Source of the DNA: Candidatus Hadarchaeum sp.
Lineage (GTDB): Archaea; Hadarchaeota; Hadarchaeia; Hadarchaeales; Hadarchaeaceae
Direction of reading: 5' to 3'
Length of the DNA: 64,000 nt
Assembly: GCF_038871235.1 (NCBI RefSeq)
Contig: NZ_JAVZIN010000001.1
Location: 71,926 to 135,925 of the forward strand
Shown here: positions 46,859 to 48,982 of the stretch, one piece after another
Layout: every line of letters starts with the position of its first letter
How positions within the stretch are numbered: position 1 is the stretch's first letter
Translations under genes and position numbers: made by a program
The notes under the pieces: generated by a model
Told to the model about the DNA's origin: nothing
Database searches by the model: none
The model's input: the letters and a program-made list of their open reading frames with translations, nothing else

Positions 46859-47716
46859 TTGAACAGGGAGAGAAGGTCTAAAGCGGTGAAGTTTAACATG
46901 CGGCTATATCCCCTCGCGATAATCCCATTGGTCTTGTCTCTGGGCGCGATAGTGGTCTCGGGCATAAATCCCGGGCCGCAGTCCTATCTTACCCTCGGCG
47001 TTGCCGGCGCCACTTTCTTGGTCTCCGCGGCGATATTATTCGCTTATTCTAGAAAATCCACTGAGGCCAAGCAGATCCCGCTGGAAAATTTCTCCGTCTG
47101 GGCTGACGTCGGCGAACCAGCTTCAGAGCTGAGAAGGCTGAGCCGGGGAGAGACCTTTGCCGCTGCCCAGATAGCTGCCACTGACCTAGATTCCCTCGCC
47201 GCAAACGCTGAACTGCTCCAAGCACGAACTTACATGCTCGTAGGCAAGGTCGGTTTTGAATCCGTCACCGAGGAGAAGATGCACAGGCGGGTGGAAGCGC
47301 TAGTGAACGACATCAACCATATCTCAAAATCCATCAGCACCTCTAAGGAATTAACTAAGGAAGTCATCCCTCAAATAGAACAGTGCGCCGCCCAAGCCGA
47401 ACGAATCGCCAATAAATTTTTTGAGCTTGAGGAAGGAAAACCAGAGACCATCTACATATACCTGGAGCCGCTGAGGAGAGCGGCTGAAAAGCTCTCCCGC
47501 GACCTGAGGCTGGCGGCAACCAACATCTCCAAATATCTGCTGTGGGAAGAAAAAGCGCCCGGCCAGGTAGAGACGCCCGCCCCGCTGGCTGCCTCCGGTG
47601 TTGAAGCCCCTCCTCAGCCCCCGCCAGCACCGACTGAACCTGAGTCGAAGACCTCGACCACTGAGATGCTCCCACAACCTGAACTACCCTCTGAACAACC
47701 GACCGAGAATAAATAA
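46859..47716 (+). CDS. hypothetical membrane-anchored coiled-coil protein with Pro-rich C-terminus
   Basis: 285 aa with two N-terminal TM helices, a helical middle and a C-terminal 'PPQPPPAPTEPE'. Confidence 0.3.
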   Translation: MNRERRSKAVKFNMRLYPLAIIPLVLSLGAIVVSGINPGPQSYLTLGVAGATFLVSAAILFAYSRKSTEAKQIPLENFSVWADVGEPASELRRLSRGETFAAAQIAATDLDSLAANAELLQARTYMLVGKVGFESVTEEKMHRRVEALVNDINHISKSISTSKELTKEVIPQIEQCAAQAERIANKFFELEEGKPETIYIYLEPLRRAAEKLSRDLRLAATNISKYLLWEEKAPGQVETPAPLAASGVEAPPQPPPAPTEPESKTSTTEMLPQPELPSEQPTENK

Positions 47717-47728
47717 AAGGGTCTGAAC

Positions 47729-48982
47729 GTGAAGCCGCATTTGAACCTGGTCTTTATCGGCCACGTTGACCACGGCAAATCAACCCTCATCGGGAGACTG
47801 CTGGTAGAGATGGGAGTCGTCAAGGAGAAGGAGCTTCTGGATGAAGCCGGAAGCTTCAAGTTCGCCTGGGTGATGGACAGGGAAAAGGAGGAAAGGGCGC
47901 GGGGGGTGACCATTGATATCGCCTACCAGAAGATCGAGACCCAGAAGAATGTCATTACCATAATCGACGCCCCGGGCCACCGCGACTTCGTCAAAAACAT
48001 GATCACGGGCGCGAGCCAGGCCGACGCGGCAGTGCTGGTTGTGGCCGCTGATGATGGGATTATGCCGCAGACCCGTGAGCACGCGGCACTGGCCTTTACC
48101 CTTGGTGTTGGCCAGATCATCGTCGCCATCAACAAGATGGACCTAGTGGGTTTTCGCCAGGAAGTTTATGAAGAGATAAAAAACAGCATGATCACCCTGC
48201 TCAGCAGCATCGGTTACCGAAATGCCTCAGAGTTGCCTTTTATCCCACTGGCGGCTTTCTTCGGCGAGGGCGTCACTAAACCCAGCCCAAAGATGCCCTG
48301 GTACAATGGACCCACCCTACTCGGAGCTCTGGAGAGGTTAAAGGAACCCGAGAAGCCGATAAACAAGCCCCTGAGGATCCCGATTCAAGATGTTTTCTCA
48401 ATTACTGGAGTTGGCACGGTACCGATAGGTCGCGTGGAAACCGGCGTCCTGAAAATTAAGGACATCGTCGTCTTTGAGCCTTCGGGCAGTAGCGGTGAGG
48501 TCCGCAGCATCGAGATGCACCACGAACAGATTCAGCAGGCGGTTCCGGGCGATAACATCGGCTTTAGCGTCAGAGGGGTCTCCAAGGATGAGGTGAGGCG
48601 GGGAGACGTCGCCGGCCATCTGACAAACCCGCCCACCGTCACCAATGAGTTCACAGGAAAAGTGGTCATCCTCGCCGTCCCTACTGAAATCTCGCCGGGA
48701 TTCACGCCGCTCTTCCACTGCCACGCGGCTCATGTCCCGGGAACCATAATCGAGATCCTGCAAAAAATAGATCCCAAGACCGGGGCGGTTGTCGAGGAAC
48801 ATCCGAAATCGCTGAGGAAGGGCGACGCGGGCGTCATCAGGGTCAGGCTGGCCAAGCCGATGGTGATCGAGCGATCCAGCGAACTCCCGGAGCTAAGCCG
48901 GTTCGCCATCAGGCACGCCGGACAGACCATTGCCGCCGGCATGTGCATTGACCTCGTTGAAATTAAGAGGGCCGCGAGATAA
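47729..48982 (+). CDS. EF1-alpha-family translational GTPase paralogue
   Basis: 417 aa. 'GHVDHGKST', '[28 protein letters not shown]' and 'NKMD' are all present. Domains II and III are collinear with aEF1A. The segment after G3 reads '[13 protein letters not shown]' rather than the longer a/eEF1A insert. Confidence 0.75.
   Translation: [417 protein letters not shown]

Follow-up and report, generated by a model that had tools for sequence, protein, structure and literature searches.

A 64-kb window of Candidatus Hadarchaeum sp. DNA (the window being the whole stretch that was analysed) contains a gene for the translation elongation factor EF1A, and the question it raises is why this gene stands outside the ribosomal context usual for such a factor and what its product does there. 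The gene, at 47729..48982 on the + strand, has a GTG start and encodes a three-domain protein of 417 amino acids (aa); immediately upstream lies a gene for a predicted membrane protein (46859..47716, +). A preliminary description of the locus took the pair for an EF1-alpha paralogue with an abnormally short G3–G4 spacer and a membrane-anchored companion, and offered two readings of the EF1A: a specialised GTPase, perhaps with an Hbs1/eRF3-like role, or a divergent canonical factor.

The gene is very probably a paralogue of the canonical EF1A, and the two forms are referred to here as type A (the window's) and type B (that of the ribosomal operon). The fullest explanation that can be offered—that type A is a duplicate arisen within the phylum, has become a specialised carrier, and has a membrane protein as its operon partner—stands, taken as a whole, at about an even chance of being right. 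Neither reading frame is a chance one, because both are conserved and under purifying selection; both are real at the coordinates given, lie 12 nt apart, and contain the motifs first quoted from them.

Two EF1A types in Hadarchaeota

Membership of the EF1A family, as first proposed, is borne out. The 417-aa protein carries G1 at residues 11–18, G2, G3 (DAPGH) at residues 80–84, and G4 (NKMD) at residues 135–138, all intact, and Pfam finds GTP_EFTU together with domain 2 and domain 3. On the curated NCBIfam EF-1 alpha equivalog TIGR00483, it scores 618.5 bits against a cut-off of 540.1. The selB model TIGR00475 yields 187.6 bits (cut-off 242.25) and covers only model positions 2–318 of 581; unlike SelB, the protein has no C-terminal extension past domain 3. 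It is below the cut-offs of the EF-Tu models (246.7 versus 449 for NF000766 and 226.5 versus 522.4 for TIGR00485) and far under those of the aIF2-gamma and CysN models. Judged by its sequence, type A belongs to the aEF1A family and is not SelB, aSelBL, EF-Tu, eRF3, or Hbs1. The protein is 100% identical to the NCBI entry 'translation elongation factor EF-1 subunit alpha [Candidatus Hadarchaeum sp.]' on GCA_038873675.1; among the matches listed, the closest locus is from a Candidatus Hadarchaeum metagenome-assembled genome (92% protein identity), and the next ones are all from Hadarchaeota.

The feature that first drew attention, a 13-residue segment between G3 and G4 (residues 106–118; 48044..48082, +), turns out to be the ordinary short, Euryarchaeota-type state of an EF-1 alpha indel. 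The best solved match is a 434-aa EF1A, PDB 3wy9, which we take to be that of Pyrococcus horikoshii; its alignment spans nearly the whole protein (540 bits) and is ungapped across G3–G4, where it reads VVAATDGVMPQTKEH. The 4cxg and 3vmf chains have a form seven residues longer, SARKGEFEAGMSTEGQTREH. The distance from DxPGH to NKMD was taken in 78 related archaeal loci on one-genome-per-species contigs, among the matches listed, and the 59 residues of the window protein recur in all 14 Hadarchaeota loci as well as in most loci from Methanobacteriota, Thermoplasmata, Altiarchaeota, and Aenigmatarchaeota. The canonical Hadarchaeota copy itself has a G3–G4 segment identical or near-identical to the window's. 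The long form is an 11-residue insertion common to Crenarchaeota and eukaryotes (PMC3852633), which is not present in the window protein. Since the canonical factor of the lineage and most non-TACK archaea share the short spacer, it is uninformative on paralogy; as the mark of a paralogue it was rejected, being normal outside Crenarchaeota and eukaryotes.

It is in genomic context that the two types part. As the preliminary description had it, the window gene lies outside the usual ribosomal setting: no rps10, rps7, rps12, EF2, or second EF1A gene occurs in the 64 kb. A first scan of related loci, among the matches listed, placed the window and loci L001–L004, L006, and L007 in type A, where a phosphopantothenate synthetase gene diverges from a homologue of the 285-aa upstream gene, EF1A follows, and no rps10 comes after. 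Loci L005, L008–L012, L033, and L051 were placed in type B, a 420-aa EF1A in the classical order rps12-rps7-(EF2)-EF1A-rps10; the adjacency of rps10 and EF1A was seen in 64 of 80 related loci among the matches listed. Around the rps10 matches inspected, the order was always rpoB-rpoA1-rpoA2-L30e-NusA-rps12-rps7-EF1A-rps10 with an EF1A of 420–421 aa, and EF1A stood directly upstream of rps10 at three rps10 look-ups as well as in seven classical-context loci of the first scan. An rps10 named Ca. Hadarchaeum yellowstonense is likewise preceded by a type B EF1A. Type A comprises more than 110 protein clusters (90% identity) in public data. Its members score 593–635 bits on TIGR00483, 50–100 bits below the 665–695 of type B, and because both pass the cut-off, both types receive one annotation name.

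Whether a canonical copy exists elsewhere in the genome was a check suggested in the preliminary description, and relatives do carry a separate 420-aa EF1A, in rps12-rps7-EF1A-rps10, in the same assemblies as the window-type gene. Type A P0061 and the rps10 P0246, which has a type B neighbour, co-occur in GCA_054775295.1 (BAAGLC010000029.1 and BAAGLC010000015.1; loci L102 and L108), and are again found together in ENA ERZ3612388 (coverage 4.31 and 4.70) and ERZ3612387 (3.28 and 2.65). The longest contig on record is 84,151 bp for both P0061 and P0246, and 122,983 bp for both type A P0087 and rps10 P0294; since these recorded sizes match between the type A and rps10 records, they point to single contigs carrying both gene types. 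In tetranucleotide composition, the 64-kb window correlates at 0.92 with the H. yellowstonense-type classical locus, 0.90 with L009, and 0.92 with L001 of its own type, while the SPET22 contigs of types A and B match each other better than any other (0.89). The separate operon copy favours the paralogue over the divergent canonical factor among the two readings first offered; the spacer, as a diagnostic, does not survive.

One further contig, L085 (JGI 3300043544, Ga0453690_018341, 5,029 bp), joins sequence of the two types. Its left part, comprising the synthetase gene, the membrane-protein gene, and approximately the first 360 nt of EF1A, matches the window and L001 at 83%–89% identity; beginning with the G3 block, the contig is 99.7% identical over 2,980 bp to L090, an H. 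yellowstonense-type classical operon contig containing rps10, RIO1, eIF-1A, and LeuA. The 409-aa 'EF1A' called on it (P0107) is a type A/type B hybrid. A natural hybrid gene was considered and rejected, given that the switch falls in the most conserved block, G3, and that the right half is 99.7% identical elsewhere; P0107 is most likely an assembly artefact. The join nonetheless ties the types together, because assemblers join two related loci of one population.

A joint neighbour-joining tree places A and B as sister clades inside Hadarchaeota, with paired copies at matching depths and in congruent order, and a Hadarchaeota-specific 10-residue motif is common to both types. Type A sits on the longer branch (mean identity to outgroups 57% versus 61%), and the two copies of a same-assembly pair share 61.7% identity. 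Gene conversion between the copies was also considered, and the shared G3 block of this pair has no clear excess of third-position identity. Ratios of nonsynonymous to synonymous substitution rates (dN/dS) are 0.04–0.10 for type A, 0.02–0.04 for type B, and 0.036 for the window EF1A against L001, indicating purifying selection on both types. Type A would thus have arisen by duplication within Hadarchaeota and have been kept beside type B, which stays in the operon. A record labelled 'Hodarchaeaceae' (P0077) belongs to an assembly that differs from that of L010.

Residues altered in type A

The positions at which type A departs from the canonical factor were identified by comparing 131 type A, 16 type B, and 65 outgroup sequences, the latter two making up a canonical set of 81. 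G1–G4 are invariant across the 131 type A sequences. Of 210 columns conserved in canonical aEF1A, only 11 have become fixed for another residue in type A: numbered on the window protein, H66Y, Y74N, F76I, D202E, V233I, Y325F, V328L, A337P, C338G, A368G, and D396H. Specificity residues have been set out, in Thermus numbering, as pocket positions 67, 226, 227, 239, and 285 and the archaeal T-stem contacts V341, S350, and D390 (PMC3239215). Escherichia coli EF-Tu, in a sequence 100% identical to PDB 4p3y_A, served as the numbering reference, with positions computed directly. The 11 changes include five of the eight specificity positions (H67Y, V239I, V341L, A350P, and D390H; hypergeometric P = 7.4e-6); two of the five lie in the pocket, and the other three are the full set of T-stem contacts. 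The remaining pocket residues, Q226, D227, and N285, are retained, invariant or nearly so.

The first of the pocket changes, Tyr66 (codon 47924..47926, +), aligns with His66 of E. coli EF-Tu (Thermus His67) in the aminoacyl side-chain pocket (PMC3239215); His occupies the site in 79 of the 81 canonical sequences, and Tyr does so in 129 of the 131 from type A. Phe is the residue given for position 67 in crenarchaeal canonical and archaeal EF-1 alpha (PMC3239215). The second, Ile233 (codon 48425..48427, +), aligns with the pocket residue that is Thr239 in Thermus and Val239 in archaea (PMC3239215), and here the division is complete, with Val in 81/81 canonical and Ile in 131/131 type A sequences. 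The T-stem positions lie on a remodelled surface of domain 3, residues 320–396 (48686..48916, +) (PMC3239215, PMC3467058), as L328 (Thermus 341), P337 (350), G338, and H396 (390).

The same surface includes the contacts for the release factor aRF1. In the Aeropyrum pernix aEF1A–aRF1 structure, site 1 consists of Ala338, Gln378, and Phe379 and site 3 of His348, Arg413, and Asp414; Ala338 and Phe379 matter for formation of the complex, and Phe379 is conserved between aEF1A and eRF3 (PMC3467058). The A. pernix chain aligns ungapped in the domain 3 contact region at an offset of +18, placing its Ala338, Phe379, and Asp414 at E320, S361, and H396 of the window protein. At the Ala338 equivalent, every one of the 81 canonical sequences has A or V, whereas 128 of the 131 from type A have E, D, Y, Q, or R; the Phe379 equivalent remains Phe in only 7/131, being mostly A, S, C, or T, and the Asp414 equivalent is His in 130/131. 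The His348 and Arg413 equivalents are kept in every type A sequence. It looks as though the site 1 constraint has been lost in type A, because the replacements there are varied, whereas the T-stem positions are fixed to new residues. P0087, from loci L096/L097, has Tyr at the Phe379 equivalent and Arg at that of Ala338.

Between G1 and switch I (approximately residues 29–41; 47813..47851, +), most type A proteins are 6 residues shorter, 'KKFEAMGDKGK' being replaced by 'EAG'. No functional conclusion is drawn from this deletion, because the long form persists in some type A lineages whose genomic context is the same and the canonical EF1A of Methanobacteria is even shorter than type A in this region. 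Ten intermediate type A proteins of 420–422 aa (P0059, P0070, P0075, P0088, P0093, P0094, P0099, P0103, P0113, and P0117; loci L081–L084) have the long 'KKFEAMGDKGK' segment together with a domain 3 signature and a genomic context typical of type A. Since they show the remodelling of domain 3 and the relocation without the 6-residue deletion, the first two preceded the third.

The membrane-protein partner and the neighbouring genes

The description of the upstream protein as membrane-anchored agrees with the predictions. Two N-terminal membrane helices are predicted to form a hairpin at residues ~18–64, followed by a helical bundle at ~89–232 and a disordered Pro/Glu-rich tail at 233–285; AlphaFold2 models the hairpin with an up-and-down bundle, at a predicted local distance difference test score (pLDDT) above 90 for residues ~90–232. 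Because basic residues flank the hairpin on both sides, the bundle is probably cytoplasmic under the positive-inside rule. An alignment of homologues defines a conserved domain of ~160 residues with the invariant motifs ENFxxWxDxGEP and EPLRRAAEKLSRDLR; the tail is variable and present in only some homologues. Against L001, the gene has a dN/dS of 0.16, a sign of purifying selection.

The family is an orphan one. Pfam and NCBIfam give no match for the protein, and Foldseek against the PDB returns no significant fold match; all it finds are helical bundles of a generic kind, designed or natural (best E = 7e-3). Its 95 homologues are all unnamed and, where a source is given, all from Hadarchaeota; a profile search of 1.84 billion cluster representatives recovered only 21 partner clusters, all of one architecture.

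The pairing of this gene with type A is close to universal, as the suggested check on its co-occurrence brought out: it lies 3–26 nt upstream of type A in every lineage examined except L096/L097, and 21 contig sizes are identical between the type A and partner match lists. In the window, the 12-nt spacer aagggtctgaac (47717..47728, +) separates the partner stop codon from the EF1A GTG, and spacing as short as this, here and in relatives, suggests that the two genes are co-transcribed. The exceptional loci are ENA SPET22-1 scaffolds (P0087) of a deep-branching type A lineage with no partner gene; there the synthetase gene abuts EF1A across a 77-bp gap. The phosphopantothenate synthetase gene is the invariable neighbour of type A, even where the membrane-protein gene is absent.

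In the window, this phosphopantothenate/pantothenate synthetase gene (46029..46850, −) diverges from the partner gene, and the listed TTG starts of both are probably too far upstream. Synthetase homologues start at 'MDEISSLHP', corresponding to an ATG at 46805 on the minus strand, and partner homologues at 'MRLYPLAII', corresponding to an ATG at 46898. Since most partner homologues begin at Met14 of the window protein as listed (285 aa from TTG 46859), ATG 46898 is the probable start, giving 272 aa. Between the probable starts of the two genes lies a divergent intergenic region of ~92 bp (46806..46897), within which a promoter is presumed.

The wider neighbourhood contains genes for a DHH phosphoesterase, an ornithine cyclodeaminase-family protein, the phosphopantothenate synthetase, a thiamine-binding protein, rubrerythrin, NAD synthase, and an aromatic amino-acid cluster. 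Downstream of type A, a conserved block on the minus strand (50057–56058) encodes NAD synthase, prephenate dehydratase, prephenate dehydrogenase, and shikimate dehydrogenase, and continues with type I dehydroquinase, type II (archaeal) dehydroquinate synthase, and a DeoC-family aldolase. In most relatives the block remains syntenic with type A. In the window and L001, the thiamine-binding protein and rubrerythrin genes are inserted between EF1A and NAD synthase. Farther off, a 5S rRNA gene (11613–11733) adjoins a tRNA-Asp gene (11383–11458), the two occupying 11383–11733 on the minus strand.

A special tRNA encoded nearby was considered as a cargo for type A and rejected, since the candidate at 45313–45429 (−) looks like a normal tRNA whose gene has an intron, with GUU (Asn) apparently the anticodon. 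It matches the Rfam tRNA model at 30.6 bits (gathering score 29), and its anticodon loop is followed by 61 inserted nt; ARAGORN, its intron mode included, finds no tRNA there. A tRNA conserved at this position in relatives is unlikely, because in L002 the equivalent gap measures just 127 bp. Similar long tRNA matches occur at 10319–10423 (−) and 39795–39904 (−), which suggests several intron-containing tRNA genes in this genome.

Proposed function, rival explanations, and significance

The function proposed for type A is that of a specialised aminoacyl-tRNA carrier, a role to which the residue comparisons lend a likelihood at or slightly short of even. Type A would still bind the aminoacylated end of tRNA, given that the pocket backbone and domain 2 are conserved, albeit with its preference shifted as regards both the amino acid (positions 67 and 239) and the T-stem (341, 350, and 390). 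Service to aRF1 and aPelota would have been given up, leaving termination and rescue to the 'omnipotent' type B, and the partner may recruit, tether, or regulate type A at the membrane. It has been proposed that partner-specific contacts let an omnipotent factor split into unipotent GTPases (PMC3467058). A bolder version, advanced only tentatively and with real doubt, is that in Hadarchaeota the 'omnipotent' EF1A has split in two, type A being unipotent for a particular aminoacyl-tRNA or a non-standard aminoacyl group and anchored by its partner to the cytoplasmic side of the membrane.

Several points weigh against the explanation as a whole. The change from His67 to Tyr is a mild, conservative aromatic swap, and the assignment of contact residues depends on aligning type A with bacterial EF-Tu and A. 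pernix aEF1A; passing the equivalog model, as all type A proteins scored do, is moreover compatible with a general role in elongation. The partner is not obligatory, because the L096/L097 lineage is without the membrane-protein gene. As to paralogy, the same-contig evidence consists of matching sizes and not of coordinates for both genes, and the 'assemblies' may in some cases be entire metagenomes and not bins. The canonical copy is known from congeners and other Hadarchaeota but was not seen directly in the window's own genome. The neighbour-joining trees carry no support values, and the sister position of type A could be affected by long-branch attraction.

The alternatives rank, in descending likelihood, as a condition-specific isoform, a carrier of aRF1 or aPelota, and the sole canonical factor. 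The first, unlikely but to be taken seriously, is that type A performs general elongation and is expressed under stress, in starvation, or in some growth phase, like actEFTu2 or the tissue-specific eEF1A2. Its passing of the EF-1 alpha equivalog, its intact GTPase motifs and mostly intact pocket, and the strong purifying selection on it would all suit such an isoform, and actinomycete EF-Tu duplicates have been described as condition-specific; actEFTu2 itself, found in some actinomycetes (Streptomyces), is a divergent second copy that persists beside the canonical one without gene conversion, as type A does (PMC4342817). Unlike type A, actEFTu2 is bacterial, and it is reported to be starvation-induced. 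To our knowledge, it has neither a membrane partner nor remodelled specificity residues. The substitutions in type A cluster at specificity and aRF1-contact positions instead of being spread protein-wide, and its operon partner is a membrane protein rather than a stress-response regulator; both observations favour the specialised carrier over an isoform of this kind.

Quite improbable is a carrier of tRNA-mimic proteins, that is, an archaeal counterpart of eRF3/Hbs1 delivering aRF1 or aPelota in termination or ribosome rescue, which was the role suggested in the preliminary description. Duplications in the EF1 family have mostly given rise to factors for particular tRNAs or tRNA mimics (PMC4342817), and domain 3, which binds domain C of aRF1/aPelota, is the most altered part of type A. 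What the alterations have done, however, is to remove or relax the aRF1-binding residues: the Phe at position 379 and the Asp at 414 have largely gone, as detailed above, and the varied charged or bulky replacements for Ala338 speak of relaxation, not of a new fixed interface. The aminoacyl pocket, by contrast, is largely kept; Q226, D227, and N285, which are dispensable for holding aRF1 (PMC3467058), stay invariant or nearly so. There is also no N-terminal extension of the kind seen in eRF3/Hbs1, G1 starting at residue 11. Type A resembles eRF3 and Hbs1 in being the product of an EF1A duplication with division of labour, but it has apparently dropped the release-factor interface, and its duplication is limited to one archaeal phylum.

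Very improbable, lastly, is that the window gene is the sole canonical EF1A, relocated from the ribosomal operon, with type B coming from other Hadarchaeota in the samples or from mis-binning: a window holding one EF1A only, annotated EF-1 alpha and passing the equivalog cut-off, and one locus per Hadarchaeota assembly among the matches listed would fit it, but the P0061–P0246 pair recurs in three assemblies at near-equal coverage, contigs of 84,151 and 122,983 bp are common to both gene sets, the H. yellowstonense rps10 follows type B on DNA matching the window's composition (r = 0.92), the A and B subtrees are congruent, and the presence of EF1A directly upstream of rps10 at all three look-ups, as in the seven classical-context loci, overturned the idea that the 'clade B' loci stem from other lineages.

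With canonical aEF1A (TIGR00483; 3wy9 and A. pernix 3vmf/4cxg), type A shares the three domains and G1–G4, with the short spacing of 3wy9; it differs in lying outside rps12-rps7-EF1A-rps10 and coexisting with the canonical copy in relatives, in having 5/8 specificity positions changed and aRF1-contact residues lost, and, in most members, in the 6-residue deletion. On the features that would mark it as an orthologue—its place in the operon, copy number, specificity residues, and aRF1 interface—it does not pass for aEF1A. Like type A, aSelBL is a duplicate within the EF1/SelB family that is restricted to certain lineages, and it was once proposed as a tRNA-specific elongation factor (PMC3037878); aSelBL, however, is derived from SelB and has a degraded G domain, whereas type A derives from aEF1A and its G domain is perfect. 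Eukaryotic EFL is likewise a divergent EF1A paralogue, believed to deliver aminoacyl-tRNA, but EFL is almost mutually exclusive with eEF1A (PMC4342817), while type A co-occurs with the canonical factor.

A census of translational GTPases in 2015 recognised seven archaeal subfamilies, with aSelBL the sole archaeal addition to the ancestral set (PMC4342817), and archaeal EF1A has been regarded as a single 'omnipotent' factor for elongation, termination, and ribosome rescue (PMC3467058). A search of a paper library for an EF1A paralogue in Hadesarchaea/Hadarchaeota turned up no description; type A would be an undescribed EF1-family subfamily. The conserved pairing with it also gives the orphan membrane-protein family its first functional handle.

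Where archaeal marker-gene sets use TIGR00483 as a single-copy marker, choice of the wrong copy or a false duplication could skew Hadarchaeota phylogenies as well as estimates of completeness and contamination. If the 'omnipotent' factor has indeed been split, Hadarchaeota would offer an independent archaeal parallel to the eukaryotic split among EF1A, eRF3, and Hbs1, an eighth archaeal translational GTPase subfamily beyond the seven of the census, and a branch of translation specialised in space or in chemistry. The two types, taken from one organism, make a concrete pair for testing the tRNA and amino-acid specificity of archaeal EF1A, and a duplicate retained throughout the phylum, with its cargo residues altered and its release-factor contacts gone, would amount to a natural experiment in dividing the duties of one factor.

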